Sequence record: PX871048.2
DNA: 43,596 bases
Direction: 5' to 3' (one strand)
Source: a phage
This document shows positions 6,185-42,707 of this stretch, one piece after another. The position numbers were made by a program, and so were the translations under genes. Under the pieces are notes generated by a model. The model ran no database searches and was not told where the DNA came from. It was given only the letters and a program-made list of their open reading frames with translations. How positions within the stretch are numbered: position 1 is the stretch's first letter; the number at the start of each line of letters is the position of its first letter.

Positions 6185-7206
6185 CACCGAATACTCAGGC
6201 GATTCAGTCCTTAATCCGTCTTGCCCGCGACCCGGTAGTAGGTAATCTCAACCTAACCACATCCAATATGGACAAGTTGTTAGCGACTCAGAACGAGATA
6301 GAAAACTATTTCGGTAACGCAGAGGCTGGTCAATTCTGCTACACTTTTGACGATTATAAAATGACTATGCAGGACATAATCAGCACAATAGCCGACGCTA
6401 TTTTCTGCACACCATATCGTAAAGGGCAAGACATATTACTGGATTTCGAGCGCCCTCGTATGGGGCCGGAGATGGTATTCACCCACCGCAGCAAAACTAC
6501 CGCGGCGGAGAAGTGGACGCGCACGTTTAACGACGCACAGGTATACGATAGTCTCAAGTTTTCATACATCGACCCAGATACTAACGTCAAAGAGACTATT
6601 AGCATCCCGGCCGAAGGAGGTGTTAATACCGAAACGTACGACTCTAAGGGTATCCGTAACTATCGACAGGCGTACTGGGCAGCTTATCGACGTTACCAGA
6701 AAAACTTGTTGAAGAAAGTCACGGTGTCCTTTACGGCGACAGAAGAAGGAGTTTTTGTGCTGCCTGGTCGCGCAATAAGCGTCGTTAAAGGTTCGCGCGT
6801 AGCGCCTCAAGACGGCTATGTTGTTGCCGTTAATGGTCTTACTCTGACTTTATCACAGCCGGTTACTTTTACCCCCGGAGACGACCACTCATTGATTCTT
6901 AAGAAGCGTGACGGTGGTGTTCAAAGTGTTGCCGTTGTGCCCGGAAGCCACGACCGTGAAGTGGTTATGCTCTCTGCGCCTCAGGAGGCGATATACACAG
7001 GGAATAGCGCACTAAAAACTGAGTTTTCATTCGGCAACGAAGCAAGGCATAATGCTCAGATGATTCTTGTTTCTACAGTTGACCCTGGAGACGACAGAAC
7101 GGTTAAGATTACTGGGATTAACTACGAAGCAGATTTCTATAAATACGACGGCGTCGCACCTTTCGGTAGCGGTTTCTCCGGCGGATTCAGCAACGGTTTT
7201 AGTTAA
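6064..7206 (+). CDS. large tail-tip / host-specificity protein, C-terminal part (starts inside repeat copy 2)
   Basis: 380-aa ORF; its frame equals the frame of the upstream ORF if one repeat copy is deleted (..HSARKQTPRAAEIKQ..). Confidence 0.55.
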   Translation: MHSARKQTPRAAEIKQPQLRMVATEMVYKYLGNGVFDTVMTPNTQAIQSLIRLARDPVVGNLNLTTSNMDKLLATQNEIENYFGNAEAGQFCYTFDDYKMTMQDIISTIADAIFCTPYRKGQDILLDFERPRMGPEMVFTHRSKTTAAEKWTRTFNDAQVYDSLKFSYIDPDTNVKETISIPAEGGVNTETYDSKGIRNYRQAYWAAYRRYQKNLLKKVTVSFTATEEGVFVLPGRAISVVKGSRVAPQDGYVVAVNGLTLTLSQPVTFTPGDDHSLILKKRDGGVQSVAVVPGSHDREVVMLSAPQEAIYTGNSALKTEFSFGNEARHNAQMILVSTVDPGDDRTVKITGINYEADFYKYDGVAPFGSGFSGGFSNGFS

Positions 7207-20195: not shown

Positions 20196-20486
20196 TTAAC
20201 GTTTAGCCAGACATTCCATTAAATGTGAATATTTTCTGTAATAGCAAGGAACTAAATCACACCCAAAATAATGATAAACATAAGCCAAGTGGTCAGTAAC
20301 ATCTATAGCGGCTGACATTGTGCTAAGACGGCGAAGGCTAATCAACTGTAATTCTTCCGTAATGCAAAATGGTTCATACGTATCAAGTTTGCAAGAAACG
20401 TTAAAACACAGAGCATAGCCGTCTTGTGCGGAGTAGACCAGAAATGCGCTGTCGTTCTCTTTATCGTGAAAAATTACACCTTTCAT
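20196..20486 (-). CDS. hypothetical protein
   Basis: 96-aa ORF, ATGA-coupled to upstream HTH gene. Confidence 0.45.
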   Translation of the reverse strand: MKGVIFHDKENDSAFLVYSAQDGYALCFNVSCKLDTYEPFCITEELQLISLRRLSTMSAAIDVTDHLAYVYHYFGCDLVPCYYRKYSHLMECLAKR

Positions 20487-20653
20487 TTCACATTCTCCTT
20501 AACCCACGCTTCTACTTTATTTCGGTCAAACGTACCCGGCATACGGCGGCCCATTACTTTAACGCTGCAATCAGGAAACTTCCCGCTTTTAATCCAGTTA
20601 TTTATTGTCTGACGAGTAACTCCGATTAATTCTGCAACCTCGTTTATAGTCAT
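20483..20653 (-). CDS. AlpA/excisionase-like HTH DNA-binding protein
   Basis: MTINEVAELIGVTRQTINNWIKSGKFP; start set at ATG 20653 with AGGAG RBS (track start 20743 rejected). Confidence 0.55.
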   Translation of the reverse strand: MTINEVAELIGVTRQTINNWIKSGKFPDCSVKVMGRRMPGTFDRNKVEAWVKENVK

Positions 20654-20758
20654 TTCACGATCTCCTGTGTAAGATGTAGTGAAGTATAAAGCGGTAACTT
20701 TGTAAAAGCAACCAAAACAACACACAAAGCCACTAAGATACAAAAGATGCTACTGGGA

Positions 20759-20787
20759 TTGACTTTTACTTAAAAATGTGCTAAGCT
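20759..20787 (+). promoter_or_regulatory. promoter TTGACT-17-TGnTAAGCT (extended -10) driving structured element A
   Basis: same hexamers, spacing and TGn as the promoter at about 33037-33065. Confidence 0.45.
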
Positions 20788-20891
20788 TCACTGAGCTTGT
20801 GAGATATCGCAAGCGACCGCGGAGCGGCAGGGAACGCAACGCGTGCCATTAGGCACTTGAGTGTAGTTCCGCTGGCGCTTTCGGAAGGGCC
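20782..20891 (+). ncRNA. candidate structured RNA element A (paralog of 33060-33168)
   Basis: about 75 percent identical to copy B with conserved blocks GAGCTTGTGA, AAGCGACCGCGG, TTCGGAAGGGCC and a covarying hairpin GTGCC-ATTA-GGCAC vs GGAC-GTAA-GTCC; no ORF. Confidence 0.35.
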
Positions 20892-21066
20892 AAAGTCTAT
20901 TGTTAATCCCGCCTAAATACCCAAGTCACTGATAATTAAAGTTTCTATAGTTGCCGTAAGCGAGGTAGAGAGTACTTCACTCCGCTGTGGTGGGCTAACG
21001 CCCACCCACTGCGTTGCGTACTCTTTTAAGAAACGAAAGAATCACAACGGCAACGTAACTATTCTC

Positions 21067-21095
21067 TTGCACACCCCAACATAATAGGATACTAT
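21067..21095 (+). promoter_or_regulatory. sigma70-type promoter, class I (TTGCAC-17-TACTAT) with AATAG-N4-CTATT palindrome over -10
   Basis: TTGCAC ACCCCAACATAATAGGA TACTAT; identical 33-mer at 42676-42707 on minus. Confidence 0.65.
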
Positions 21096-21129
21096 TCACT
21101 TATCGAAACGAGACAGAGGAGTGAGGGTT

Positions 21130-21321
21130 ATGTTTAAAAAGGGTCAGTTGGTTAAAAGTGCCGACGGTAAACACGGCATAATTGAATTAAAATCATCTTT
21201 ATTTCCCGGGCAGTACGTAGTGACTGTGCAAAAGGTGAGAGGTGTAAATTCGAAAACATACGTAGCAGAGAGGAACTTAGAACTCATCGGCAACAATTTT
21301 AAATTCAAAGGGGCGAAGTGA
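21130..21321 (+). CDS. hypothetical early protein
   Basis: ATG with GAGGAG RBS; 63 aa. Confidence 0.5.
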   Translation: MFKKGQLVKSADGKHGIIELKSSLFPGQYVVTVQKVRGVNSKTYVAERNLELIGNNFKFKGAK

Positions 21322-21521
21322 TGGAAGAATTATTTGAAGAACTGAAACATCATAAACTGGAGAAAGTACATTTCCAGGTAAACAGGTACGAGGTTGTTAT
21401 TTTAGATGGAAAAACAATTATCACAGATTCTGCCAGGAGAATGCTTCATATTCTACGCTTCATACGAACGGCATCGAATCATGATGCTCGTGCCTACGAC
21501 TCTGAGGGAGGTTGCCGTTAA
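21321..21521 (+). CDS. hypothetical early protein
   Basis: ORF in track, start ATG 21321. Confidence 0.45.
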   Translation: MEELFEELKHHKLEKVHFQVNRYEVVILDGKTIITDSARRMLHILRFIRTASNHDARAYDSEGGCR

Positions 21522-21712
21522 TGAGAATTCGTATAACTGATGTTGATTATGTTCCGCCGCCGGATTATGGCGACCCTTCGTTACGTGACTTCGGTATCTC
21601 AGTCGGAGATGAGTTCGAGGTCACATTCAGTAATGTTTATGGTCACCTAGTTGAACACCGTGGCGAGGAACTGTTAATACGCGACCGTGAATGCGAAGTT
21701 CTGGAGGACTAA
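21521..21712 (+). CDS. hypothetical early protein
   Basis: ATG 21521 with GGAGGGAGG RBS. Confidence 0.5.
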   Translation: MRIRITDVDYVPPPDYGDPSLRDFGISVGDEFEVTFSNVYGHLVEHRGEELLIRDRECEVLED

Positions 21713-21715
21713 GTT

Positions 21716-21859
21716 ATGAGAGAAGCATTCGAACGGTGGGCGGTAGTCGAGGGTCTGCCGGTTAACAAGGGTTCAAAGAAAGAGTACCTGAATGTTAAGA
21801 CGCGTCTCGCGTGGCGGGCGTGGAAAGCTGGTGTTTTGTTTATCGCGAATCAGAGGTGA
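21716..21859 (+). CDS. hypothetical protein (47 aa)
   Basis: tight spacing between flanking genes; below track cutoff. Confidence 0.35.
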   Translation: MREAFERWAVVEGLPVNKGSKKEYLNVKTRLAWRAWKAGVLFIANQR

Positions 21860-21862
21860 GAT

Positions 21863-22057
21863 ATGAGCGAGTGGGTTAAGTGTAGTGAGCGGATGCCGAT
21901 GGCGTGCCGTGACGTAATAATAACCGACATGGATATGGTTTCCAGAGTGGCATGGTTCAACGATAGAAATGACGCCTGGTATGTCACAGGGGTTGGGTGG
22001 TTTTCACGTGATGAAGTGACGCACTGGATGCCGTTACCAGAGCCGCCTGATGTGTGA
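21863..22057 (+). CDS. DUF551-like phage protein
   Basis: ERMP..VTHWMPLPEPP C-terminal signature; from memory. Confidence 0.55.
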   Translation: MSEWVKCSERMPMACRDVIITDMDMVSRVAWFNDRNDAWYVTGVGWFSRDEVTHWMPLPEPPDV

Positions 22058-22099
22058 TGTTATATTGTAACAATAGTTTGGGATTTTACTGAGTGACTT

Positions 22100-22130
22100 A
22101 CGCTGCTACACAGCAGCGTATCATTTTTCT
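22100..22130 (+). terminator. rho-independent terminator (ACGCTGCT-ACAC-AGCAGCGT plus T-run)
   Basis: 8-bp stem then TCATTTTTCTCATTTTT. Confidence 0.6.
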
Positions 22131-22190
22131 CATTTTTGTTCTATTTCACCAAACGCAACAATCGAAGCGACTATTGCAGGAGATGCAATA

Positions 22191-22364
22191 ATGGTTACTA
22201 AAGAACAGGCCGAACGACTAATCACGTTAATCGACACGATGATTGATGTGAAAACCGATTCAGCAACGGCAACAGAGGAATCCAGTACCTGGTCGCTTGA
22301 AGAAAGAGAAGCAGAAGCGGAGCGCGAGTTACAGGCGTTCATCGATTCAATAACACACCAATAA
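22191..22364 (+). CDS. hypothetical protein (57 aa)
   Basis: AGGAG RBS 6 nt upstream of ATG; replaces spurious antisense track ORF 22130..22381. Confidence 0.4.
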   Translation: MVTKEQAERLITLIDTMIDVKTDSATATEESSTWSLEEREAEAERELQAFIDSITHQ

Positions 22365-22371
22365 AATTTAC

Positions 22372-22400
22372 TTGCACACACAGATATAATAGACTACTAT
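22372..22400 (+). promoter_or_regulatory. sigma70-type promoter, class I (TTGCAC-17-TACTAT) with palindrome
   Basis: TTGCAC ACACAGATATAATAGAC TACTAT; leader begins ATCGAAACGAGAGGAG. Confidence 0.65.
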
Positions 22401-22429
22401 TCAGTTATCGAAACGAGAGGAGAGAGAAG

Positions 22430-22567
22430 ATGGGCTGGTACGGTAGCTGGGCATTAGGTGAACTGGTAGACGCTTACGAAATAATGGGTAGCACTTCGGT
22501 GTGCGACGGTGACACTAAATCGCTGCTAGTCGGGGTCGATGAGAAAAGGGGTGAAGACGATGAATAA
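22430..22567 (+). CDS. hypothetical protein (45 aa)
   Basis: first ORF after promoter, RBS GAGGAGAG. Confidence 0.4.
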   Translation: MGWYGSWALGELVDAYEIMGSTSVCDGDTKSLLVGVDEKRGEDDE

Positions 22568-22715
22568 TTTCGTGGTGCAAGCAATGTACGCTGAGGAAAT
22601 GGCAAAAAGTATGTTAGAGCAAACATTACATTTCGCTAAGCTGCAAGGGTTCGACGTACAGACAGTAGGCGACGAAATAGTATTGACCGAGAAGTCGGAG
22701 AACGGCGATGAGTAA
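22560..22715 (+). CDS. hypothetical protein (51 aa)
   Basis: overlaps neighbours by 8 nt each side. Confidence 0.35.
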   Translation: MNNFVVQAMYAEEMAKSMLEQTLHFAKLQGFDVQTVGDEIVLTEKSENGDE

Positions 22716-23184
22716 CAACGACGCAGTAATCGAGTTCCTGCTTAACCAACTACGGCAGCAGTTAACTAACAACCCGTACAAGCAACAGTGCGAAGACCTG
22801 GCGCATGAGGTGCTGTCACTTAAGAATCAGTTACGTGACGCGTCGGAGCTGGTGGCTGAGTTACAGAGCGAGTTACAACATCAGATTGACCTGGCGGCAG
22901 GCGTGTATAGATGGTCTACCGCGCATTTCGACGAGAAAGGTAAAGTCTTCAAGGTCGAGAGTGGGGTTAAGACAGAGCAATCCGGTTGCCGGAAGGAAGA
23001 TACCCAGGGATGCGAGCATGATTGGGTGCTAGATGAAAAAGGGGACTACTTCATTTGCGCTAAATGCGGTAAGCAAGAATCGGAATTGAGCGATTGCCAA
23101 CACGCTAATACCGTCGGTTTGCGCAAAGGCTTTGCGCCGGGTTTTACTAAAAAGTGTCTTGATTGCGGGGCTAAACTGAAATGA
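22708..23184 (+). CDS. zinc-ribbon protein (two CxxC pairs)
   Basis: 158 aa; CAKCG..CLDCG. Confidence 0.5.
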   Translation: MSNNDAVIEFLLNQLRQQLTNNPYKQQCEDLAHEVLSLKNQLRDASELVAELQSELQHQIDLAAGVYRWSTAHFDEKGKVFKVESGVKTEQSGCRKEDTQGCEHDWVLDEKGDYFICAKCGKQESELSDCQHANTVGLRKGFAPGFTKKCLDCGAKLK

Positions 23185-23384
23185 CCAGCATCTTATTTAT
23201 CTGGGTACTGTCCGCAGGCCAGATGCACCTGGCGGCATCAGAAACGTTTTACTCGATGGAGGCGTGCCAGTCAGCAGCACGCGCCGCAGAGAACGCGCAC
23301 TTTCTGTTTCAGGGCGATAAGCCCGACGATTCAGAGGTACGCGCTATCTGCTCACCTAAGCGACTTGGTAAACAGGAGAAGTGA
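23181..23384 (+). CDS. hypothetical protein with N-terminal hydrophobic segment
   Basis: 67 aa, ATGA overlap. Confidence 0.45.
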   Translation: MTSILFIWVLSAGQMHLAASETFYSMEACQSAARAAENAHFLFQGDKPDDSEVRAICSPKRLGKQEK

Positions 23385-23386
23385 TT

Positions 23387-23659
23387 ATGGTACAGAGATA
23401 CGATTTAAAAGAAGACTGTGTTACAGGGCATATTGACTTAGAGAAAGACGCAGACGGTGACTGGGTGCGTTATGGGGACTACAAGGAACTGGACGGCAGT
23501 TTCCAGGACTACATAACCGCTACGGACATGGAAATCGAGGGGCTTGTGTCAAGACTGGCAGAAGTAAACGCTGAGTTACAGAAATACAAAGACCAGTTCC
23601 CGGATTACGTCGAGTGCGCGAACTGTGGGTCAATTACACATGTGGAAGGGGTGGTGTGA
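23387..23659 (+). CDS. hypothetical protein (MVQRY paralog 1)
   Basis: start ATG 23387 after GGAGAAG RBS. Confidence 0.5.
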   Translation: MVQRYDLKEDCVTGHIDLEKDADGDWVRYGDYKELDGSFQDYITATDMEIEGLVSRLAEVNAELQKYKDQFPDYVECANCGSITHVEGVV

Positions 23660-23841
23660 TGGTACAGAGATATGAAGTTAGAGGGAGTGAAATTGGAAGT
23701 GGCGCGGATTGGGTCGCGGTCGTTACCTATGCGGATTACGTAAAACTTGAGCTTAAGTTACGTAGGCTTGCCAAACAGGTGATAGACCGCCAGTGCGACT
23801 GGAAGACGTATGAATTAGCGCGCGAGATTCTCGACCTATGA
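23659..23841 (+). CDS. hypothetical protein (MVQRY paralog 2)
   Basis: starts ATGGTACAGAGATA like the preceding gene; start moved to 23659. Confidence 0.45.
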   Translation: MVQRYEVRGSEIGSGADWVAVVTYADYVKLELKLRRLAKQVIDRQCDWKTYELAREILDL

Positions 23842-24131
23842 GCCTCGCAACTGACATCCTGAAACGAAGCGGCCTTACGCCGCTATCACCGAGAGCGAAC
23901 ACCCGGATATACAAGCGCCGCCGTAATTCGCTATACTCTGAGATTCAGGCCAGACGCAAAGCTGTCCGAGCCTGTGGATTCCAGAACGGGAAGGCCGTGA
24001 ACCTCGGTGAGTTTAAAACAAAGGAACGCGCCGCAATCGCTAATCGGCTATTTAATTACTGGAAATCGCTGGGGTACGATGATATTCCGACGAAACCGCA
24101 GAGACGGCAATACATCTGGAGACACAAATAA
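23838..24131 (+). CDS. basic protein, function unknown
   Basis: 97 aa, K/R-rich. Confidence 0.45.
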   Translation: MSLATDILKRSGLTPLSPRANTRIYKRRRNSLYSEIQARRKAVRACGFQNGKAVNLGEFKTKERAAIANRLFNYWKSLGYDDIPTKPQRRQYIWRHK

Positions 24132-24206
24132 ACCGTTATTAGGATAATTCCTACCCGTGGTATCCTCCAGTTACTGCATACTTAATACGCACCTGGAGGA
24201 TTCATC

Positions 24207-24515
24207 TTGGATAAATTTACTGAAACAGTGACAGGCTGGCTTCTGGCTGCCGCGCTAGCCGGAGGGGTAATCGGGCTACGACAACATAAGTCCGCTATTT
24301 CCGGCCCTATCGACGGATTCTGCTTTATCGCAACTGGCTTCACTTGCGCTGTATTTGGCGCACCTCTTGCCGCTCAATGGTTTGGAATCACGGGCGACCG
24401 TGAAATCGCTGGCCTGGGCTTCATTATCGCTATTCTCTGGATGCCTATCTATTCCCGTCTCTCCGGTATCGTTGCCGGAGAATACATCGCGCGTCGAGGA
24501 GGCACAGATGAATGA
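24207..24515 (+). CDS. putative holin (three predicted TM segments)
   Basis: TTG start after GGAGGA RBS; 102 aa; immediately upstream of endolysin. Confidence 0.55.
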   Translation: MDKFTETVTGWLLAAALAGGVIGLRQHKSAISGPIDGFCFIATGFTCAVFGAPLAAQWFGITGDREIAGLGFIIAILWMPIYSRLSGIVAGEYIARRGGTDE

Positions 24516-24780
24516 GTTATTCTGGTTCGGCGGTATGCTGGCAATCGGGGGTACATCGCTGTTTAATGTGTACCATCCCAGCGTTGATGACGGGCTGTTC
24601 GGCCGGGTGCTCTATATCCTGACTGCTATCGTCTGCGCCGCCGGATGTATCCACCTGTTACAGGGCAGCATGTCACCAACACTGCCCGAGACATTAATCA
24701 CATTAGTTGCGCTACGCCAGATTCGCCAGGCGTGGTTATCGTACGGAGGACATAAGCGTGTCTCGAAACATTTCAGATAA
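24508..24780 (+). CDS. putative second holin/antiholin (two TM segments)
   Basis: ATG 24508 after GAGGAGG; 90 aa membrane protein between holin and endolysin. Confidence 0.45.
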   Translation: MNELFWFGGMLAIGGTSLFNVYHPSVDDGLFGRVLYILTAIVCAAGCIHLLQGSMSPTLPETLITLVALRQIRQAWLSYGGHKRVSKHFR

Positions 24781-25243
24781 TGGATTGCATTTCACCGCTG
24801 CGTTCGAGGGATTCCGCGGGACTGCGTATCGTGCTACGCCTAACGAGAAGTACCTTACCATAGGCTACGGTAATTACGGCCCGCATGTTAAGGCGGGGCA
24901 AACCATCACGCCGGGGCAAGGCCTCCTGTTACTGAATCGCGATATGGCTAAGGCCGTAGCTGCGGTTGATGCAGCAGCGCACCATTCGCTTACACAGGCA
25001 CAGTTCGATGCAGTGTGCGACCTGGTGTATAACGCAGGTGCCGGCGTGATTGCCGCTACCACTGGTACGGGTAAGGCGCTGCGCACAGGCGATATTGCGA
25101 CGCTGCGGGCTAAGCTAGCGCTGTTCATAAACCAGAACGGCAAACCGCTACTCGGCTTGCGTCGCCGTACAGCCGGGAGACTGGCATTATTTGACGGTAA
25201 ACCGTGGCAAGAGGCTGAGGCTATTGGGAGGGCTGTTAAATGA
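24758..25243 (+). CDS. endolysin, GH24 phage lysozyme family
   Basis: FEGFRG..YLTIGYG and C-terminal LGLRRRTAGRLALF resemble T4/P22-type lysozymes; GTG start 24758 after GGAGGA. Confidence 0.7.
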   Translation: MSRNISDNGLHFTAAFEGFRGTAYRATPNEKYLTIGYGNYGPHVKAGQTITPGQGLLLLNRDMAKAVAAVDAAAHHSLTQAQFDAVCDLVYNAGAGVIAATTGTGKALRTGDIATLRAKLALFINQNGKPLLGLRRRTAGRLALFDGKPWQEAEAIGRAVK

Positions 25244-25402: not shown

Positions 25403-25475
25403 CCAATTGACACCTAAGACTAATCCGACGATACTTAAATCACCTCCTGTTCTATCCCTCTGCTCTCCAGTTTTA

Positions 25476-25509
25476 TCCCGGCCCTGACCCAGCCGGGATT
25501 TTTTTTATC
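25476..25509 (+). terminator. second rho-independent terminator (CCCGGC..GCCGGG plus T9)
   Basis: tandem to previous terminator. Confidence 0.75.
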
Positions 25510-27542: not shown

Positions 27543-27624
27543 ATCCCCTTATATAATCCCTTTAGACGCGCAGGGCGCGTCTGGTGCGCTCTGATGGTCA
27601 GACGCATATGCAAGGGGATTATAT
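27543..27624 (+). promoter_or_regulatory. late-operon control region: TATAAT-like box, 10-bp inverted repeat ATATAATCCC/GGGATTATAT flanking perfect hairpin AGACGCGC-AGG-GCGCGTCT
   Basis: symmetric structure immediately upstream of small terminase start. Confidence 0.4.
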
Positions 27625-28171
27625 GAAGCTGAAACTCAAGCAGCCATCGCCAGAGGTGGTGCAAGCTGCACATGAAGAAGCTGTTAGCGCAAACCGTCGC
27701 CGTAAACGACCGCGCGGTGAACAGAGCCTTTATCAATCGTCCCGTAATTCCGCAGCGTTGTGGGACACGGACTATTGCGACGAATTGATTCGTTTCTTCG
27801 ACCGCACGTCATGGGAGGCTATGCCGACCGGTGCGCACGGAGACTACAAAGCAGTCATTGCGGATAAACCGCCATCACTGGCTCGCTTCGCCTTACACAT
27901 CGGTGTCACTATCCCGATTATTAAGCTGTGGCTGCGTGAGATTCCGGCTTTCGCAGAAGCCTATGAAACTGCACAGGCGCTGGAAGAGGCGTATTTCACC
28001 GAGACCGGGGCCGCCGGTATCTCGGCTACGTTTGCCGCCGCGAAGCTGGGCCTCGGAAAAGAGAAACCAGTTGAATCAAGCGAAGAAACTGCACCTACTG
28101 AGATTATTTTCAGTGTTGCAGAGCCCGTGGGTAAAATCGTAACAACGAATATGGGTGAGGTAGAGGAATGA
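27623..28171 (+). CDS. terminase small subunit
   Basis: 182 aa directly upstream of and overlapping large terminase; RBS AAGGGGA; start 27623. Confidence 0.55.
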   Translation: MKLKLKQPSPEVVQAAHEEAVSANRRRKRPRGEQSLYQSSRNSAALWDTDYCDELIRFFDRTSWEAMPTGAHGDYKAVIADKPPSLARFALHIGVTIPIIKLWLREIPAFAEAYETAQALEEAYFTETGAAGISATFAAAKLGLGKEKPVESSEETAPTEIIFSVAEPVGKIVTTNMGEVEE

Positions 28172-29418
28172 GTATTCAGCTATCCGCCCCGCAGGCACTG
28201 TTCCTGAATTGCGATAACAAATACAAGGCCTATGTCGGCGGCTTCGGCAGCGGCAAGACATTTGTCGGCTGTCTGGACCTGCTTACTTTTATGCTAAAGC
28301 ATCCCGGTACGCGCCTCGGTTACTTCGGACCAACATACCCGGCCATCCGCGACATCTTCTACCCGACATTCGAGGAAGCGGCTAACCTGCTCGGCCTCGA
28401 TGTTCTGGTTAAATCCGGAGATAAAGAGGTTGTTGTTACCCGCGGTAAGACGGTGCTCGGAACTGTTATCTGCCGCTCGATGGATAACCCCGGCTCGATA
28501 GTCGGCTTCAAAATCGCGGCTGCGGTCGTGGATGAGCTGGACGTATTGAGCCGCGAGAAAGCTGAGCTGGCGTGGAACAAAATCGTAGCCCGTATGCGTC
28601 TTGTTATTCCTGGCGTAACCAACCACATCTCTGTAACCACGACGCCGGAAGGGTTCAAGTTCGTCTACGCCAAGTTCAAAGAGAATCCGACACCGAGTTA
28701 TTCAATGGTGCAGGCTTCCACTCACGAGAACGCGCGGTTCCTGCCGCCTGACTACATTAGTTCGCTGACCGAGACTTACCCCGCGCAACTGATTAACGCG
28801 TACCTGAACGGGGAGTTCGTCAACCTGACATCCGGCAGCGTGTACTACGCCTATGACCGCCGTAAGCATCGCAGCAAAGAGACAATTCAACCGGGCGACA
28901 CGTTGTACATCGGGCAGGACTTCAACGTTACGAAGAACGCCAGCGCCGTGTATGTACAGCGTAAAGATGGCTGGCACGCGGTGGCGGAACTGAAGGGTCT
29001 GTTCGATACGCCAGACACCGTGCGTGTAATTACTGAGAAGTGGAAGTCCCAAGGACACCGCATCGTCGTTTACCCCGACGCCAGCGGCAAGAACCGCAAG
29101 ACAAACTCGGCATCAATCTCAGATATCGCATTACTCCAGCAGGCCGGTTTTGATGTTCGCGCTAAACCAGCCAACCCTCCGGTTAAAGACCGTGTTTTAG
29201 CAGTGAATACCGCGCTGGAAAAAGGTAAGCTGTGGGTTAATGACCACTTATGCCCGGAGATAGCCAAGACGCTGGAGCAGCAGGCATACGACGATAACGG
29301 AGAGCCCGCTAAAGACGGCGTTATCGACCATATGGCGGATGCTCTCGGCTATCCTGTAGTTTACGAGATGCCGGTGGTTAAACCAGTAATCAACATCCCG
29401 GTGACTTTCGCACTTTAA
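28168..29418 (+). CDS. terminase large subunit
   Basis: Walker A GGFGSGKT, Walker B AAVVDELD, nuclease-like C-terminus; 416 aa. Confidence 0.85.
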   Translation: MSIQLSAPQALFLNCDNKYKAYVGGFGSGKTFVGCLDLLTFMLKHPGTRLGYFGPTYPAIRDIFYPTFEEAANLLGLDVLVKSGDKEVVVTRGKTVLGTVICRSMDNPGSIVGFKIAAAVVDELDVLSREKAELAWNKIVARMRLVIPGVTNHISVTTTPEGFKFVYAKFKENPTPSYSMVQASTHENARFLPPDYISSLTETYPAQLINAYLNGEFVNLTSGSVYYAYDRRKHRSKETIQPGDTLYIGQDFNVTKNASAVYVQRKDGWHAVAELKGLFDTPDTVRVITEKWKSQGHRIVVYPDASGKNRKTNSASISDIALLQQAGFDVRAKPANPPVKDRVLAVNTALEKGKLWVNDHLCPEIAKTLEQQAYDDNGEPAKDGVIDHMADALGYPVVYEMPVVKPVINIPVTFAL

Positions 29419-29430
29419 GAGGATTATTCA

Positions 29431-30903
29431 ATGTTAACTATGAACGGTCAGAATCAGGGTGTTAAGACAAAACACCAGGAATGGCTGCAGCACTTCAATA
29501 AATGGCAGAAGGTTCGCCATGCTCTGGAAGGCGACCTTATTCGCTATCTTCGCAACGTCGGGAAGAATGAGCCTGACCCGACCTACGCGGCCCAGCGCCA
29601 GGAAGAATACGAGAACGGCGCCATCTGCTACAACTTCACCAAACGTACCCTGGCGGGGATGGTCGGCAGCGTTATGCGTAAAGACCCCGAGCAGATTATC
29701 CCGCCTGAACTGGAGTACCTGTTGCGCAACGCCGACGGTTCCGGTGTCGGGCTGTGGCAGCACGCGCAGGATACGCTAATGGAGATTGACTCAGTGGGCC
29801 GTGGCGGGTTGCTGGTGGACGCCCCGGAGACAGCCGCAGCAACGGCGGCAGAGCAGAACGCAGGGTTGTTAAACCCGGTCATCGCATTCTACACCGCAGA
29901 GAACATCATCAACTGGCGGCTGACACGCATCGGTTCAGTTAACCGCGTGACGATGGTCGTGCTGCGCGAGGCATGGGAGTACTCAGAACCTGGCGCGGAA
30001 TTTGATACCAAGTTCGGCGAGCAATACCGCGTCCTTGACCTGATTGACGGTCGCTACCGCCAGCGCATCTATCGCTTCGATGCCGAAGGTGGCGCTCAGG
30101 ATGAAGTAATCGAAATATTCCCGGAGCTTGGCGAACAGTTGCGCGGCAAAATCCCGTTCACGTTCATTGGGGCAAGCAACAACGATGCAACCATTGACGA
30201 CGCACCTTTGCTGCCGTTGGCTGAGCTTAATATTGGGCATTTCCGCAACAGCGCGGACAATGAGGAATCCAGCTTCGTTGTAGGGCAGCCCACTCTGTTC
30301 ATCGCCCCTGGCGAGAACATGAGCGTGGAACAGTGGAAAGAAGCCAACCCTCACGGCGTGCGCATGGGGTCGCGCTCAGGCCATAACATCGGTTACGGCG
30401 GCAACGCGTTTCTGGTTCAGGCCGGAGAGAACAACCTCGCCAAACAGAACATGCTGGATAAAGAGAATCAGGCCATCCAGATTGGTGCGCAGCTTATCAC
30501 GCCGACGCAGCAGATTACCGCTGAATCAGCCCGCCTGCAACGTGGCGCTGATACATCCGTAATGGCAACCATTGCGCGTAACGTAAGCATGGCATACACA
30601 GAGGCGTTGCGTTGGGTGGCTGCTATGCTTGGGCTGCGTGAAGGCACGGAGATTGAGTTCAAACTGAACATGGAGTTCTTCCTGCAACCGATGACGGCGC
30701 AAGACCGCGCACAGTGGATGGCAGACATTAACGCTGGTTTACTGCCAGCAACCGCCTACTACTCCGCGCTGCGTAAGGCCGGGGTAACTGACTGGACCGA
30801 CGAGGATATTCAGAACGCTATCGAAGACGCACCGCTGCCGTTAGGCGCCGCTTCTCAGGTAGCAGGAGAAATTCCGCAGTCGGCGCAGCAACAGCAGGAG
30901 TAA
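29431..30903 (+). CDS. portal protein
   Basis: 490 aa immediately after large terminase. Confidence 0.7.
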   Translation: MLTMNGQNQGVKTKHQEWLQHFNKWQKVRHALEGDLIRYLRNVGKNEPDPTYAAQRQEEYENGAICYNFTKRTLAGMVGSVMRKDPEQIIPPELEYLLRNADGSGVGLWQHAQDTLMEIDSVGRGGLLVDAPETAAATAAEQNAGLLNPVIAFYTAENIINWRLTRIGSVNRVTMVVLREAWEYSEPGAEFDTKFGEQYRVLDLIDGRYRQRIYRFDAEGGAQDEVIEIFPELGEQLRGKIPFTFIGASNNDATIDDAPLLPLAELNIGHFRNSADNEESSFVVGQPTLFIAPGENMSVEQWKEANPHGVRMGSRSGHNIGYGGNAFLVQAGENNLAKQNMLDKENQAIQIGAQLITPTQQITAESARLQRGADTSVMATIARNVSMAYTEALRWVAAMLGLREGTEIEFKLNMEFFLQPMTAQDRAQWMADINAGLLPATAYYSALRKAGVTDWTDEDIQNAIEDAPLPLGAASQVAGEIPQSAQQQQE

Positions 30904-30936
30904 AGAAAAAGGCCCCTTAAGGGGCCTTAGTTTTAT
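30904..30936. terminator. bidirectional terminator (perfect palindrome AAGGCCCCTTAAGGGGCCTT flanked by A/T runs)
   Basis: serves + portal gene and convergent minus moron gene. Confidence 0.7.
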
Positions 30937-31178
30937 CGCACTCTCATAAATAGCTTACCTTTGCGTTGCAACAAATCCATACCGACAGCACCTTCGCCAG
31001 ATTTGTTCGGACGGCGCATTAAACTAAAGTTCCATACTCTAGCTTTTGAAGCATCTTTCGCATTGCACACCCAAAGTCTACCATTTTCTCTTAGGTCAAA
31101 TAAGTCCGATATACTGAGATTATTAACCGGTATGAAACCGCCAATGAACTCACGTTCGCAACTAGGTAATTCCTGCAT
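30933..31178 (-). CDS. moron-like hypothetical protein (81 aa) antisense within late module
   Basis: own class I promoter and AGGAGGG RBS, own terminator. Confidence 0.5.
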   Translation of the reverse strand: MQELPSCEREFIGGFIPVNNLSISDLFDLRENGRLWVCNAKDASKARVWNFSLMRRPNKSGEGAVGMDLLQRKGKLFMRVR

Positions 31179-31203
31179 ACACCCTCCTGTTTAAGTTAAC
31201 TGA

Positions 31204-31232
31204 ATAGTACCCTATTATATTGGTGTCTGCAA
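31204..31232 (-). promoter_or_regulatory. sigma70-type promoter, class I variant (TTGCAG-17-TACTAT) with palindrome
   Basis: minus-strand reading TTGCAG ACACCAATATAATAGGG TACTAT. Confidence 0.6.
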
Positions 31233-31276
31233 ATATTATTTTTATGCGTTACACTGGCGATACTACAGGAGGGCAT

Positions 31277-32320
31277 ATGAGCTTACTTACATCCCTAATT
31301 AGCCACCAGATATGGCTACAACGCACCGCATCCGGCGAGGTGAAAGACCTTGCGCCGTTCATTCAGGAAATGCGGGACGAAATCAAACGGCAGGTGTTGC
31401 TGTTCGGCGACGACGGTCGCAGCACCGCGCGACTGAATAAACTGTTACGTGACCTCGAAGAAGCACTGACCGGGCTTACAGGCGACTGGCAAACGAAGCT
31501 GACAGAAGACCTAAAGGAACTGGCGGCGTATGAGGCCGAGTGGAACGTGAAGACACTGACGACTAACGTTAACGCGGAATTTGTTACGCCTACCGCCGAA
31601 CAGGTGTGGGCCGCTGCCGAGTTTCAGCCCTTATCATTAAGTGACAAGCCCGTTGATTTCGCCAAGCTGATGGATGGCTGGGGTGAAACAGAAGTATCGC
31701 GACTGGTAACTGGTGTTAAGATGGGTTTCGTTCAAGGCCAAACCACACGGCAGATTGTTAAAAATGTCGTTGGCGCTGGCGGACTGGCGGACATCTCTGA
31801 GCGCAACGCAGCTACGGTAACCCGCACCGCGCTGTCGCACATATCCAACGAAGCACGCAACGAGACGTACCGTCAGAACGACGACATCATCGAGAAATAT
31901 GAATGGGTATCGACGCTTGACAGCCGTACCAGTACGATTTGCAGAGCCAGGGACGGAATGACGTGGGAAATCGGTAAGGGGCCGATGCCCCCCGCCCATT
32001 TTGGCTGCCGAAGCACCACAGCACCTGTAATCAGTTCAGAATTCGACTTCCTCGATAAAGACGCAAAACGTGCAGCTAAGGGTGCGGACGGCGGAACTCA
32101 GGTAAGCGTGGACACCTCTTACTACGAGTTCCTAAAACAACAACCGGCATGGTTTCAGGATGAAGCACTCGGTCCTGTTCGCGGTAAGATTTTCCGCAAC
32201 AGCGGTATATCGCCGGAAGAGTTTCGCGTAATATCTGTAGATGGTTTCGGGAATCCGCTTACGCTTAAGCAGATGGCGGAACTCGATAAACGTGTTGCTG
32301 ATTATCTGAAAGGGGAATAA
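31277..32320 (+). CDS. head morphogenesis protein (Mu F-like minor head protein)
   Basis: position after portal; CxxC-like STICRARDG..HFGCRST; RBS CAGGAGGG. Confidence 0.6.
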   Translation: MSLLTSLISHQIWLQRTASGEVKDLAPFIQEMRDEIKRQVLLFGDDGRSTARLNKLLRDLEEALTGLTGDWQTKLTEDLKELAAYEAEWNVKTLTTNVNAEFVTPTAEQVWAAAEFQPLSLSDKPVDFAKLMDGWGETEVSRLVTGVKMGFVQGQTTRQIVKNVVGAGGLADISERNAATVTRTALSHISNEARNETYRQNDDIIEKYEWVSTLDSRTSTICRARDGMTWEIGKGPMPPAHFGCRSTTAPVISSEFDFLDKDAKRAAKGADGGTQVSVDTSYYEFLKQQPAWFQDEALGPVRGKIFRNSGISPEEFRVISVDGFGNPLTLKQMAELDKRVADYLKGE

Positions 32321-32781
32321 TGATGGGCTTTTTCAAAGTAACTGACGTACCTTCGCGTCGCGTTGTCCAGTTTGCTCGCGTGTCTGGCTCCGGTGAGAAC
32401 GTGGTGTCTATTGGGGACGAAAGTGTACTAGGTACGCCAGTAGATGATATGCCGTTTGCAGATAAGACCGGTATTGCGCTACCCGCCGCGGGGATGCTTT
32501 ACGAGATTCCGTATCTGGCTGACGCCGGCGACGTGTATTTCTCTGTGCAACCGCAGGACACGGAACTGGCAGACGGCAGCGCAACTATCACTGTCGAAGT
32601 TAAGGCGGGCAAAGCACCGTATGCGCTGACCTGGTACAAAGACGGGAAGGAAGTGGTAAATGCCCCTGAAGAGGCCTTGTCTCTGACAGTTAATGCGGTC
32701 GGCGAATACTTCGTTAAAGTTACTGATGCCGATGGTGTGGAGGCTGTTAGTAAAGCGGCGAAGGTCATTAAGCCAGAATAA
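32320..32781 (+). CDS. Ig-like domain protein (possible capsid decoration)
   Basis: C-terminal YALTWYKDGKEV..GEYFVKVTDADG resembles Ig-like domains. Confidence 0.45.
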   Translation: MMGFFKVTDVPSRRVVQFARVSGSGENVVSIGDESVLGTPVDDMPFADKTGIALPAAGMLYEIPYLADAGDVYFSVQPQDTELADGSATITVEVKAGKAPYALTWYKDGKEVVNAPEEALSLTVNAVGEYFVKVTDADGVEAVSKAAKVIKPE

Positions 32782-32941: not shown

Positions 32942-32970
32942 ATAGTACGCTATTATGTTGGGGTGTGCAA
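32942..32970 (-). promoter_or_regulatory. sigma70-type promoter, class I (TTGCAC-17-TACTAT) with palindrome
   Basis: minus-strand reading TTGCAC ACCCCAACATAATAGCG TACTAT. Confidence 0.65.
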
Positions 32971-33022
32971 ACTATTTGTTTACGTATTCCAGTTATTCCG
33001 CTCAATTGTAAATGTTGGAATA

Positions 33023-33038
33023 AACTATTCGAATAGTT
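33023..33038. promoter_or_regulatory. perfect 16-bp palindrome AACTATTCGAATAGTT (reversed half-site order) overlapping -35 of element B promoter
   Basis: exact inverted repeat. Confidence 0.5.
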
Positions 33039-33065
33039 GACTTTTCACTAAAAATATGATAAGCT
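33037..33065 (+). promoter_or_regulatory. promoter TTGACT-17-TGnTAAGCT driving structured element B
   Basis: same architecture as 20759-20787. Confidence 0.45.
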
Positions 33066-33168
33066 CCACCTGAGCTTGTGAAGTATGAACAAGCGACCGC
33101 GGCGCGGGCAGGTAACGGAGCGGGACGTAAGTCCTGAGTGTAGTTACGCTGACGCGTTCGGAAGGGCC
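33060..33168 (+). ncRNA. candidate structured RNA element B (paralog of 20782-20891)
   Basis: conserved blocks and compensatory stem changes relative to copy A; no ORF. Confidence 0.35.
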
Positions 33169-33243
33169 GTACCCTATTGCTTGTGTAAAAAGTAACTGGT
33201 TTACTGAGATTACGCCGTTTCTATGTTTAAATGATAAGGACTA

Positions 33244-33272
33244 GCGCCCCGCTTTATGGCGGGGCTTTACTT
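33244..33272 (+). terminator. rho-independent terminator (GCGCCCCGC-TTTATG-GCGGGGC plus T-rich)
   Basis: hairpin between element B and spanin start. Confidence 0.55.
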
Positions 33273-33289
33273 ATCGAGAAAGGAGAAAC

Positions 33290-33676
33290 ATGAATCTTAA
33301 AGCAACTGTCGTAGCGGGGGCATGTTTCATCATCCTGGCTTACGCACACGGCATCTACCAGTACCGCAGCGGCTGGAACGAAGGCCGGGCTAATCTAGCT
33401 TCACAGCAACAGCGGAAAGCACAGACCGAGTTAGCGAAGAAAACACAACGGCAGCAGCAGGACGAATCGAAGGCCGCGGCCGCTGACAACGAAGGCAAGA
33501 CGAAATCAGAGGTAATTACCCGTGAAGTCGTTAAGTACATTAAAACGCCTGGCCGCAGCGTGTGCACTTTCGACGATGCTCGCGTCCTGCTCAAGTCCCG
33601 CGCCGTCACCAACGCCAATTCCATCCCCGGATACGACAATGATGCAGCCGCCGTGCAAGCTGGCACCGCCAAGTAG
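33290..33676 (+). CDS. i-spanin (Rz-like)
   Basis: N-terminal TM (ATVVAGACFIILAYAHGIY), Q/K/E-rich periplasmic segment, overlapping lipoprotein gene in +1 frame; RBS AGGAG. Confidence 0.65.
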   Translation: MNLKATVVAGACFIILAYAHGIYQYRSGWNEGRANLASQQQRKAQTELAKKTQRQQQDESKAAAADNEGKTKSEVITREVVKYIKTPGRSVCTFDDARVLLKSRAVTNANSIPGYDNDAAAVQAGTAK

Positions 33677-35635: not shown

Positions 35636-35660
35636 CGAGAGGGACTTCGGTCCCTCTTTT
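35636..35660 (+). terminator. hairpin terminator/attenuator (GAGAGGGAC-TTCG-GTCCCTCT plus T-run)
   Basis: after capsid gene. Confidence 0.6.
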
Positions 35661-35980: not shown

Positions 35981-35992
35981 AGGAGCTTAAAA

Positions 35993-36346
35993 ATGGTTGA
36001 TGTAATTAAACGCCGCATTACCGGTGTCTCCGACGACTCCCCTGCCGATGGTCAGGTAGAAATCGACATGGCGAATATCTCGCCAGCATCTTTTTCTACC
36101 GCGCTTGCGGCTACTACCGCGGTTACCGCACCTAACGCGTTAACCCTTACCGTTGCGGTAACTGGCGGTCTGGCTCCTTATTCCTACCAGTGGTATAAGA
36201 ATAACAACGCCATCGCAGGCGCTACCGAGGCTACGTACACCAAGGCCACTACTGTTGCTAATACCGACTCCGGCACGTATAAAGTGGTTGTTCACGATGT
36301 GTATGGTAATATTATCTCCAGCAGCACTGTAGCAACTGTGTCTTAA
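35993..36346 (+). CDS. Ig-like domain protein
   Basis: PYSYQWYKNNNAIAGATEATYT..DSGTYKVVVHD resembles Ig-like fold motifs. Confidence 0.5.
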   Translation: MVDVIKRRITGVSDDSPADGQVEIDMANISPASFSTALAATTAVTAPNALTLTVAVTGGLAPYSYQWYKNNNAIAGATEATYTKATTVANTDSGTYKVVVHDVYGNIISSSTVATVS

Positions 36347-40032: not shown

Positions 40033-40056
40033 AAGGCCCCGAAAGGGGCCTTTTTC
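40033..40056. terminator. bidirectional terminator (AAGGCCCC-GAAA-GGGGCCTT plus T-run)
   Basis: ends + late operon and minus accessory island. Confidence 0.75.
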
Positions 40057-40263
40057 TCACTCACTTTTGAATGGCATTTCGTAGAAGTTAGTTAACTGAC
40101 CTCTGTCACTCCGTTCTGTCATCTCTTTTGTCGCCTCTTCCTTGCTACCTACGGCGTAAATATCAACCCACTCATCCCATTCTTCGTCATATACGCGGAT
40201 AACGTATATTGCCCCCATTGTGCCTTCACGCATTTGGGTAAATCCCCAGGATTCTATTGGCAA
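40057..40263 (-). CDS. hypothetical acidic protein (start uncertain)
   Basis: 68-aa ORF, last gene of minus island. Confidence 0.4.
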   Translation of the reverse strand: MPIESWGFTQMREGTMGAIYVIRVYDEEWDEWVDIYAVGSKEEATKEMTERSDRGQLTNFYEMPFKSE

Positions 40264-40795
40264 CCGTGGCCGCGGTTAATGTAATCTCACCAGGAATGAT
40301 GGCGACGTCATGGCATACTACCCCATCAATATCGTACAGGTAGCCACGGCTATCCCCGTCAAACGTGTAGCCGTCTCGGTGCAAGCGGACGATTCGCACG
40401 TCATGCCCAGCGGCGACGATAGGGGCAACTTCACTGGCAAACCCACCGTCGGACACCACAAAAACTTCGTCGCCGTCAGGCAAGTTTTCAGCGAGATACT
40501 TACCGAAATAATCATTGCCAAGTACAGGCTTAATGAATTGCTCCGAGATAGCAATCATGAACTGACGTCGCGACAACCCATTAAGGAAACATTCTGGCTT
40601 TTCTTTCCGTGCCCGGTCGTCGTAGCCGTCGAGAAATTCGTGGTAAGCATCCGGGCCTAACGCTGCCCGAGCAATATTGAACATTGGATTCTTGAAACTG
40701 GTAGTTCCTTTCGCAAAGCCCATTTCTACCATCGCCATAGCAAGCGTGTCTTTCCCGCAACCCGCAGGGCCATTAAGGATAATTACCTTAGCCAT
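40226..40795 (-). CDS. P-loop nucleotide kinase, dNMP kinase-like
   Basis: Walker A LNGPAGCGKDT and VSDGGFASE..VRIVRLHRDG resemble T4 gene 1-type dNMP kinase; from memory. Confidence 0.55.
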   Translation of the reverse strand: MAKVIILNGPAGCGKDTLAMAMVEMGFAKGTTSFKNPMFNIARAALGPDAYHEFLDGYDDRARKEKPECFLNGLSRRQFMIAISEQFIKPVLGNDYFGKYLAENLPDGDEVFVVSDGGFASEVAPIVAAGHDVRIVRLHRDGYTFDGDSRGYLYDIDGVVCHDVAIIPGEITLTAATVANRILGIYPNA

Positions 40796-41280
40796 TATTT
40801 ATTGCTCCCGTGTGATTTTAAGTGTGTAGAGTTCCCGTTACAGTCGTATTCAGTAACCGCGTGCGTAGTGACTCCTAAGCCGCGGAAATGCTTAATCACC
40901 GCGGGCGAGTCGTCGAATGCGCACAATATTCTCTCCAGCCCGATAGCACGCAACACCTCTTCTTTAATTACGATGTCTTTTCTGTTGTCGTGTTTGCTGC
41001 GCATGATTAGCTGATAAAATTCGACGCGGTGGCGCTGCAGCCACATTCTGGTTTCTTTTTCTGCATCATCACTGCGGCCCGTTAAAATAATAACGGCATA
41101 GCGACGATTAAGGGCGTTACACAGTTCGATGTTATCTTTAATGGGCGCGTCATCTTTGCAGGCCATGTTAAAAGGCTTCCACGCCCATGTTTCGTTGTAG
41201 TTATCTTTCGGTAGCAGGTGTAAACGATGAGTACCGTCCGCCAATGTCCCGTCTAAATCGAAAATCACAATATCTTTCAT
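40795..41280 (-). CDS. HAD-superfamily phosphatase
   Basis: N-terminal FDLDGTL motif plus downstream ILTGR and FDD motifs. Confidence 0.6.
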   Translation of the reverse strand: MKDIVIFDLDGTLADGTHRLHLLPKDNYNETWAWKPFNMACKDDAPIKDNIELCNALNRRYAVIILTGRSDDAEKETRMWLQRHRVEFYQLIMRSKHDNRKDIVIKEEVLRAIGLERILCAFDDSPAVIKHFRGLGVTTHAVTEYDCNGNSTHLKSHGSNK

Positions 41281-42407: not shown

Positions 42408-42445
42408 GCTTATGTCCTCATGTGTAGGATTTGTCCTATACTAGC

Positions 42446-42637
42446 TTACTTCTCGTTAACATTCGAGTTGCAAGCCCAGATTAAAATAAAGACCCACGGC
42501 AGCAGAGCCCAGCCAAGAAACAGGTTAGCCATGAATATTGCCAACTTCGCTTTATGGCCACGCATATGGGCTACTAAAAACGGGATAAAATAAACTAAAA
42601 CGATAATGATTAAGAAGAACATAGTAATGCCAGTCAT
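42446..42637 (-). CDS. superinfection-immunity-like small membrane protein
   Basis: YFIPFLVAHMRGHKAKLAIFMANLFLGWALLPW matches the conserved pattern of Imm-type proteins; RBS CAGGAG; own promoter. Confidence 0.55.
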   Translation of the reverse strand: MTGITMFFLIIIVLVYFIPFLVAHMRGHKAKLAIFMANLFLGWALLPWVFILIWACNSNVNEK

Positions 42638-42675: not shown

Positions 42676-42707
42676 TGAATAGTATCCTATTATGTTGGGG
42701 TGTGCAA
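42676..42707 (-). promoter_or_regulatory. sigma70-type promoter, class I (TTGCAC-17-TACTAT), identical 33-mer to promoter at 21067
   Basis: minus-strand reading TTGCACACCCCAACATAATAGGATACTATTCAC. Confidence 0.65.

Follow-up and report, generated by a model that had tools for sequence, protein, structure and literature searches.

A Paralogous, Promoter-Proximal RNA Fold Heading Capsid and Lysis Operons of Guernseyvirinae Phages: A Probable cis-Acting Leader

Introduction

Why does the genome of a virulent siphovirus carry two similar non-coding segments, each behind its own putative promoter and each ahead of an operon, and what would an RNA made from them do? The window analyzed here, meaning the whole stretch of 43,596 nucleotides in record PX871048.2, is the complete 43.6-kb genome of a Kagunavirus, subfamily Guernseyvirinae; over the 601 bases around the first segment (copy A), identity to Kagunavirus NRG857CP3 is 96.8%, and this stretch has matches in 257 phage records. 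Among therapeutic and biocontrol phages of Salmonella and E. coli, the Guernseyvirinae (Jersey-like and K1G-like phages) are some of the most often isolated, and we know of nothing on how they time or boost late expression with the host polymerase alone. A preliminary description of the sequence proposed that the segment at 20759-20891 and a second copy at 33037-33168 (copy B) encode a candidate phage small RNA (sRNA) under selection on its structure. Below we examine the structure, its distribution among relatives, and the functions that its genomic setting would allow.

Results

Genomic Context of the Two Copies

Based on PHROG scans and the fully annotated relative Snoke, from which the gene map was drawn, the minus strand carries a replication cluster (helicase-primase, polymerase) that ends with a small HTH gene at 20483-20653. 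Copy A occupies a divergent intergenic region, as the preliminary description had it, with this HTH gene (minus strand) on one side and small genes (plus strand) on the other. The latter open operon A (21121 to 25243, plus strand), which the preliminary description took for the early operon and in which small genes of unassigned function are followed by two holins and an endolysin, the lysis genes being assigned from PHROG scans. The packaging and head operon (27584-32781) and operon B are likewise on the plus strand; operon B extends from 33290 to a bidirectional terminator at about 40033-40052 and encodes an Rz-like spanin, scaffold, major capsid, head-tail connectors, and tail tube.

The HTH ORF (20483-20743, minus strand) has a mechanical start at TTG 20743, while its true start is likely ATG 20653, which has AGGAG before it. 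From that start the product is 56 aa long and matches HTH_17 (PF12728), with no Phage_AlpA match at E values up to 0.01. A promoter-like TTGCTT-17-TATACT sequence lies upstream of this gene on the minus strand (about 20690-20720), back to back with copy A.

Both copies are present, each with its own putative promoter, and the promoter pattern TTGACT-N14-TGn-TAAGCT matches exactly only at 20759 and 33037 within the window. The two are indeed similar, at 80% identity (110 of 137 columns in a global alignment of 20759-20891 with 33037-33168) rather than the roughly 75% first estimated, and the four blocks described as conserved are exact in both. Two 12-mers tested, AAGCGACCGCGG and TTCGGAAGGGCC, have exact matches only at these two loci, and a covariance model (below) finds exactly two copies, at 88 and 92 bits; by 12-mers, promoter pattern, and covariance model there is no third copy in the window.

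The putative promoter of copy A (20759-20787, plus strand) comprises a -35 TTGACT (20759-20764), a 17-nt spacer ending in TGc, and an extended -10, TGc-TAAGCT (20779-20787, with TAAGCT at 20782-20787); based on spacing, transcription is predicted to start at G20793 or A20794. The element itself (type A, 20793-20903, plus strand) is delineated by a model match of 87.8 bits, the single-sequence fold, and pair counts. It includes a 5' hairpin, P1, in which GCUUGUGA (20795-20802) pairs with UCGCAAGC (20807-20814), and a long imperfect hairpin, P2 (20817-20884), with the invariant base CCG-C-GGAGCG / CGCUUU-CGG and a tip hairpin (20843-20856) reading GTGCC-ATTA-GGCAC, as the preliminary description had noted. 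The tail AAGGGCC (20885-20891) follows and then CUAUUG (20897-20902). Beyond it, a long GC-rich, terminator-like hairpin that we call t_A (20966-21028, plus strand), seen in the fold of 20797-21030, ends in UCUUUU some 175-235 nt from the predicted start; this hairpin is kept in type A and E loci.

Between t_A and the first gene of operon A (ATG 21130, within ORF 21121-21321) lies a second putative promoter, TTGCAC-17-TACTAT (21067-21095, plus strand), which is part of the locus and not of the element. It is kept in all A-locus variants and has two further copies on the minus strand. This promoter class, TTGCAC-ACCCCAACATAATAGGA-TACTAT with a conserved spacer, occurs as near-identical copies at 21067-21095 (plus), 32942-32970 (minus), and 42679-42707 (minus), which head the first gene after copy A, a 31-codon minus-strand ORF beside copy B, and the minus-strand cluster 40226-42637, respectively.

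At copy B, the promoter TTGACT-N14-TGa-TAAGCT (33037-33065, plus strand) is conserved in 181 GenBank records, with a predicted start at G33072. The element (type B, 33072-33180, plus strand), based on a model match of 92.1 bits, its fold, and pair counts, has P1 formed by 33074-33079 with 33089-33094 and P2 at 33097-33161. Its tip hairpin (33122-33135) contains the GGAC-GTAA-GTCC of the preliminary description at 33123-33134, and its tail AAGGGCC (33162-33168) is followed by CUAUUG (33174-33179). A conserved leader spacer (33181-33245, plus strand) opens with GCUUGUG (33179-33185), a repeat of the 5' arm of P1. The spacer leads to t_B (33246-33272, plus strand), a terminator-like site found by a terminator scan, in which the hairpin GCCCCGC-UUUAU-GGCGGGGC (stem 33246-33265) precedes UUUACUU, 25 nt ahead of the spanin start codon (33290); a natural compensatory variant of the stem reads GCCCTGC/GCAGGGC. 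Thus both elements are followed by a stable GC hairpin, as had been claimed for copy A.

Upstream of copy B we also observed a perfect palindrome, GAATA-AAC-TATTC (33018-33030), centered about 48 bp before the predicted start. Its half-sites are retained in the diverged Jersey-type locus (GAATA-CTT-TATTC), and none lies upstream of copy A; the palindrome is likely the operator of some regulator.

Distribution among Relatives

Relatives were collected by IMG/VR pattern scans and by BLAST against GenBank phages, and their elements fall into two loci (A and B) and six types (A-F). Type B, at the B locus, is found in 181 records, 177 of which are at least 95% identical over 261 nt. The far more diverged type F, also at the B locus and seen in phage Jersey and E. 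coli phage buks, is found in 269 mostly Salmonella records. Together, types B and F place a B-locus copy in about 450 of the roughly 460 Guernseyvirinae records, defined by a capsid protein at least 80% identical to that of the window. The A-locus copy (types A, C, D, and E) is found only in about 50 Kagunavirus records, as judged from extra matching places. A third matching place per relative genome most likely represents a different repeated promoter, TTGCACACCCCAACATAATAGGATACTAT, of the TTGCAC class.

The covariance search of relatives that the preliminary description had proposed was run with a model built from all six types. It finds two copies in Snoke and one each in SETP13 (a Jerseyvirus), Jersey, and buks, with no match in the distant Serratia phage ZDD2, where there is no such intergenic module. 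The noncoding stretch 33001-33300 is 94-98% identical between the window and SETP13, as compared to 58-90% for the flanking genes. At the A position SETP13 has a leader unrelated to the element: about 330 nt (35990-36330 of its genome) after a TTGACA-17-TAAGTT promoter, with three UUAAGUUACU-like repeats and two GC hairpins, which may be an analogous but unrelated element.

IMG/VR pattern scans found no element outside the Guernseyvirinae beyond three chance matches, and a metagenome scan returned 37 members, all of known types, and 83 chance matches. One weak model match (23 bits, contig L167) was judged to be due to chance, lying inside an ORF of a GC-rich contig. There is no match to the element in 5,426 E. 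coli genomes. The family appears confined to the Guernseyvirinae. Rfam 15 contains no family matching at gathering score anywhere in the window and none over either copy at E values up to 10, and our literature search found neither a description of the element nor a transcriptome of these phages.

A Conserved Fold Read from the Plus Strand

Each copy folds on its own into the same architecture, a P1 5' hairpin and a long imperfect P2 with a variable tip, with z-scores against shuffled sequences of -2.5 and -2.75. Because MAFFT misaligned the variable tip in the raw sequences, it was replaced by a hand alignment with gaps written as N, which MAFFT left unchanged in its columns; this alignment comprises 25 distinct sequences of the six types, of which types C and D use a middle-helix register offset by one base. 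In this alignment, which was fitted to the structure and is thus biased toward it, and in which the tip arms were set by a hairpin finder, 92.3% of cells pair across the 25 sequences, versus 28-44% in controls with the partners displaced by one to three columns. Compensatory changes on both sides are found in 15 of the 31 proposed pairs, with only about six independent lineages behind the alignment, and the covariation score exceeded that of every column shuffle.

Some of these changes are isolated enough to be read directly. Columns 32:98, flanked by invariant neighbors, are U-A in 12 sequences, C-G in 10, and A-U in 3. In the P1 of type F all five pairs are standard, and four of the five have both bases changed relative to the other types. 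Six different sequences occur at the tip, each of them forming a hairpin. The stems thus covary well beyond the single hairpin on which selection for structure was originally proposed, and that proposal is much strengthened by the six types from relatives. Together these observations make it very probable that the element is a selected RNA structure.

The sequence that stays constant across all types is concentrated at the base of P2 (A-CCG-C-GG-N-GCG with CGC-N'-UU-CGG), in the tail AAGGG(C/U)C, and in UAUUG a few bases later; P2 as a whole comprises three tiers. Two further motifs listed as conserved in the preliminary description, GAGUGUAG and GCAGG, hold in most types and are replaced in type F, in which the internal loop reads UAGCGUAA instead of GAGUGUAG.

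Columns 30:100 and 31:99 are invariant G-U pairs, and more G-U pairs occur elsewhere. As these would be A-C mismatches on the opposite strand, the RNA is read from the plus strand, which is the direction of the predicted promoter. Since the predicted start lies 1-2 nt before P1 in all types, we infer that the element would form the extreme 5' end of its transcript.

Three further pairings were considered and set aside. A 5'-closing helix of the CCU upstream of P1 with the AGG of the tail was dropped, as the predicted start is downstream of this CCU; a small P3 hairpin after the tail is inconsistently supported by the variants; and a long-range helix joining the 5' end to sequence past the downstream hairpin occurs in single folds, where by rough estimate about one such 6-bp match is expected by chance.

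The alternative that there is no functional RNA, the segments being duplicated DNA sites for a regulator or a small protein gene, draws on the conservation of the promoter spacer and sequence blocks and on a 36-codon ORF that begins at ATG 33085 (element position 14, inside the P1 loop) and is annotated as a CDS in Snoke and further records. DNA binding, which the preliminary description had itself named as the reading that would displace an RNA, does not explain the G-U wobbles or the 15 compensatory pairs, and it is disfavored because of them. We rejected the ORF as a small protein gene: type A has no ATG for it, type D cuts it short with a stop after 19 codons, and within type B natural 1-nt indels shift its frame. 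This alternative is largely refuted already and we consider it highly improbable.

Many GenBank records place a hypothetical-protein CDS over the element, on either strand (for example, Snoke 6449-6559), and the variation in reading frame suggests that these are mis-annotations. Separately, the invariant GGAAGGG of the tail is similar to a Shine-Dalgarno (SD) sequence, and a UUG 8-10 nt later opens a mini-ORF of 1-10 codons (33161-33190 and 20884-20930). The start is CUG instead of UUG in two type F (Jersey-type) variants, and in types C and D the mini-ORF is UUG-UAA, a start followed directly by a stop.

Discussion

A Leader Acting in cis or a Separate Small RNA

In every genome examined, the element is upstream of, and co-oriented with, an operon, and both window copies precede a stable hairpin. 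At the B locus the spanin start follows 25 nt after the hairpin, which leaves no room for a further promoter between them, so operon transcripts must come from the element promoter or from further upstream. The A-locus copy indicates that the duplication landed at the head of a second operon, the one carrying the other half of the lysis cassette. Because the element is always co-oriented with an operon, because the B locus has no other promoter, and because of where the duplicate landed, we conclude that the element is probably a cis-acting leader, alongside which a short terminated RNA could also be formed.

The original proposal of a free-standing, trans-acting sRNA finds no support in this context, the element being the 5' end of a co-oriented operon leader in all genomes examined. 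Such an sRNA would be about 200-235 nt long, transcribed from its own promoter, ended by the downstream hairpin, and active on host or phage targets through base pairing or as a decoy. Consistent with this, the promoter looks strong, the hairpin of types A, B, and E is stable and followed by a U tract, conservation is extreme over all 260 nt of the B unit, spacer and hairpin included, and the second promoter past the hairpin at the A locus implies that the upstream unit there could be autonomous. However, the unit is never free-standing or antisense and always lies in tandem upstream of an operon; types F and C/D lack a proper U tract; transcripts starting at the B-locus element must continue into the spanin operon, for which there is no other promoter; among the single-stranded stretches, the one conserved best is rich in purines and resembles an SD rather than an anti-SD sequence; and the E. 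coli genomes contain no match. We therefore regard an sRNA as an unlikely explanation overall, most plausible at the A locus and in those types whose terminator is good.

A different locus is the better candidate for a true small RNA than the two-copy element. At 25407-25508 (plus strand), a promoter-like TTGACA-17-GATACT is followed by a pyrimidine-rich unit of about 65 nt that starts with AUCACCUCCUGUUCUAUCCCUCUGCUCUCC, matching the anti-Shine-Dalgarno end of 16S rRNA, and ends in a strong terminator, CCCGGC...GCCGGG plus U8. This unit has a weak Rfam match to a Betaproteobacteria toxic sRNA (25 bits, E value 0.17). The locus is conserved in 437 phage records, and SETP13 retains the CU-rich motifs along with compensatory changes in the terminator stem.

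The leader hairpins differ among types in how well they would terminate transcription. Hairpin and U tract follow the element in types A, B, and E; type F has just UU, and C and D are without an adjacent U tract. In the C/D leaders of the A locus (for example, L056 at about 500-590) we observed a (CACU)n-like, C-rich and G-poor tract around a GGUGCC-UUCG-GGCACC hairpin, with about 20-22 C versus 11-13 G per 60 nt. This composition would suit a Rho-loading site in the place where types A and E have an intrinsic terminator.

One way for a leader to use such a hairpin would be as a riboswitch-like sensor, in which a metabolite or other signal acting on the fold would set readthrough. In type B and type F the 5' arm of P1 is repeated directly after the conserved UAUU downstream of the element (GCUUGUG and GCUUUCAG, respectively), at 33074-33080 and 33179-33185 in type B and at 1709-1717 and about 1802-1810 of relative L067 in type F; the repeat is present in both although the P1 sequence differs between them, and alternative pairing could result. 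Conserved internal loops inside covarying helices and the hairpin downstream would also fit a sensor. Conversely, no Rfam riboswitch matches even at E values up to 10, the internal loops differ (GAGUGUAG in most types, UAGCGUAA in type F), a distance of about 70-80 nt separates the hairpin from the element, with no overlap, and A-locus copies have no repeat. A sensor of this kind is accordingly very improbable.

Candidate Mechanisms of the Leader

Of the ways in which a leader could act in cis, the reading we put first is polymerase-directed antitermination by a put-like RNA, an assignment by analogy to which we give roughly one chance in three. Each copy would constitute one module of a sigma-70 promoter and the 5' end of its own transcript, the first 95-110 nt or so of which would fold into P1 and the three-tier P2. 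The RNA would stay on, or act on, its own transcript and control the operon behind it, copy B acting on the spanin, scaffold, major capsid, and head-tail genes and copy A on the small genes and then the holins and endolysin. The nascent RNA would bind the transcribing host RNA polymerase, rendering it resistant to terminators in the leader and within the operon.

There are terminators to pass in both operons. Operon A has the leader hairpin (20966-21028) and, ahead of the lysis genes, a terminator at 22099-22120; operon B has its own leader hairpin (33246-33265) and, immediately past the capsid gene, a strong terminator (35637-35658), beyond which about ten more genes follow a 60-nt gap without a promoter-like site. 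The put precedent shares the promoter, the paralogous two-stem RNAs, and the terminators beyond. No known protein antiterminator is found in the Snoke annotation or in PHROG scans of the ORFs tested; boxA, GCTCTT, and ops sites are absent from both leaders, and a -10-like pause element (TA..[AT]T hexamer) is absent from the first 150 nt of either.

Several observations count against antitermination. The likeness to put is one of architecture alone, with no similarity in sequence or model match to putL or putR. The downstream hairpin is a poor intrinsic terminator in types C, D, and F, and the second promoter past the hairpin at the A locus means that readthrough is not strictly required there. 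The terminase-portal and tail operons have no copy of the element. Finally, a protein-independent RNA at a constitutive promoter gives late genes no temporal control.

About as likely as polymerase-directed antitermination, and held as tentatively, is that the leader is recognized by a protein, either a phage or host factor or RNase III, at the invariant base of P2, where the C bulge, the tandem G-U pairs, and the AAGGGCC tail would serve as its binding site. Such a protein could load onto polymerase in the manner of nut and N, regulate translation, or process or stabilize the mRNA as T7 5' hairpins and RNase III sites do. Covariation is free in the helices, but the P2 base and tail are fixed in sequence, the usual signature of a sequence-specific partner. 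P2 resembles T7 RNase III sites in offering over 20 base pairs with interruptions; P1 would lie at the very 5' terminus, a position in which hairpins protect mRNA; the operon that the element heads encodes the most abundant virion proteins; the tail combines an SD-like GGAAGGG with the UUG mini-ORF; and a small HTH_17 gene adjoins copy A. Against these points, no candidate partner was identified and boxA is absent, the HTH protein matches HTH_17 and neither AlpA nor any RNA-binding family, and the UUG is CUG in the two type F variants. Nothing separates recognition by a protein from direct binding of polymerase.

If direct binding of polymerase is the mechanism, the broader proposition would be that the element represents a second, evolutionarily unrelated class of protein-independent antiterminator RNA across a subfamily of virulent phages, which is more doubtful than the mechanism itself. 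Here the nascent fold of about 100 nt would dock on E. coli or Salmonella RNA polymerase via the invariant helix with the bulged C and tandem G-U pairs and the AAGGGCC tail, and the polymerase would be carried through intrinsic as well as Rho-dependent terminators in the capsid and lysis operons.

Significance

At the head of the Guernseyvirinae capsid operon, no non-coding sequence is better conserved than the element. Should it modify polymerase directly, it would join put as just the second RNA class of this kind, and would supply a compact, portable part for antitermination or expression. The put RNA acts via the beta' zinc-binding domain of RNA polymerase, suppressing pausing and termination, and to our knowledge has been a lambdoid curiosity for 30 years. 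If the element is instead a protein-binding or stability element, it would still mark a control point of late expression and a target for engineering or attenuating phages. The family is also well suited to experiment, as its natural compensatory variants define where pairing and where sequence matters.

Comparison with Known Systems

With the Q-dependent PR'-6S RNA-tR' region of lambda, the layout described here shares a constitutive-looking promoter, a leader of about 200 nt, and a terminator directly before lysis and head genes. However, Q and AlpA use a DNA site between -35 and -10 and require no conserved RNA fold (AlpA: PMC7969949), whereas here it is the RNA fold that stays conserved; the promoter spacer is AT-rich, similar within types A-E, and different in type F. 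The first 100 nt of the leaders also lack the -10-like pause element, and no homolog of Q, N, or AlpA occurs among the ORFs scanned.

Like lambda nutL and nutR, the two copies are paralogous promoter-proximal RNA sites heading operons with terminators. Unlike them, they have neither a boxA (CGCUCUUA-like) nor a conserved short boxB-type pentaloop hairpin, and PHROG scans and the Snoke annotation reveal no N-like protein. The 5' stabilizing hairpins and RNase III sites of T7 are similar in placing a hairpin at the 5' end of the message, here for the capsid operon, and in being long imperfect hairpins with internal loops, but the invariant P2 base and tail exceed the needs of generic double-stranded RNA recognition.

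The putL and putR RNAs of HK022, which make RNA polymerase terminator-resistant without any phage protein, form two irregular stem-loops just downstream of their promoters, are paralogous, and have terminators beyond (King et al.; structure in PMC9378689). As in HK022, there are two paralogous copies per genome, right after a sigma-70 promoter (with the start predicted in our case), composed of paired irregular stem-loops with bulges and non-canonical pairs, with terminators downstream in the operon and no dedicated phage antiterminator protein recognizable. In contrast, the element is about 95-110 nt long versus about 70 for put, its P2 has three tiers, and both copies are on one strand, heading the lysis and structural operons of a virulent siphovirus, whereas put serves the early operons of a temperate lambdoid phage. 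putL as read from HK022 has no similarity to the element, and the covariance model has no match in the two HK022 put regions at E values up to 10. The element is an undescribed RNA family, whose kind is closest to the promoter-proximal regulatory leader RNAs of phages, with a sequence and fold of its own that are unrelated to theirs.
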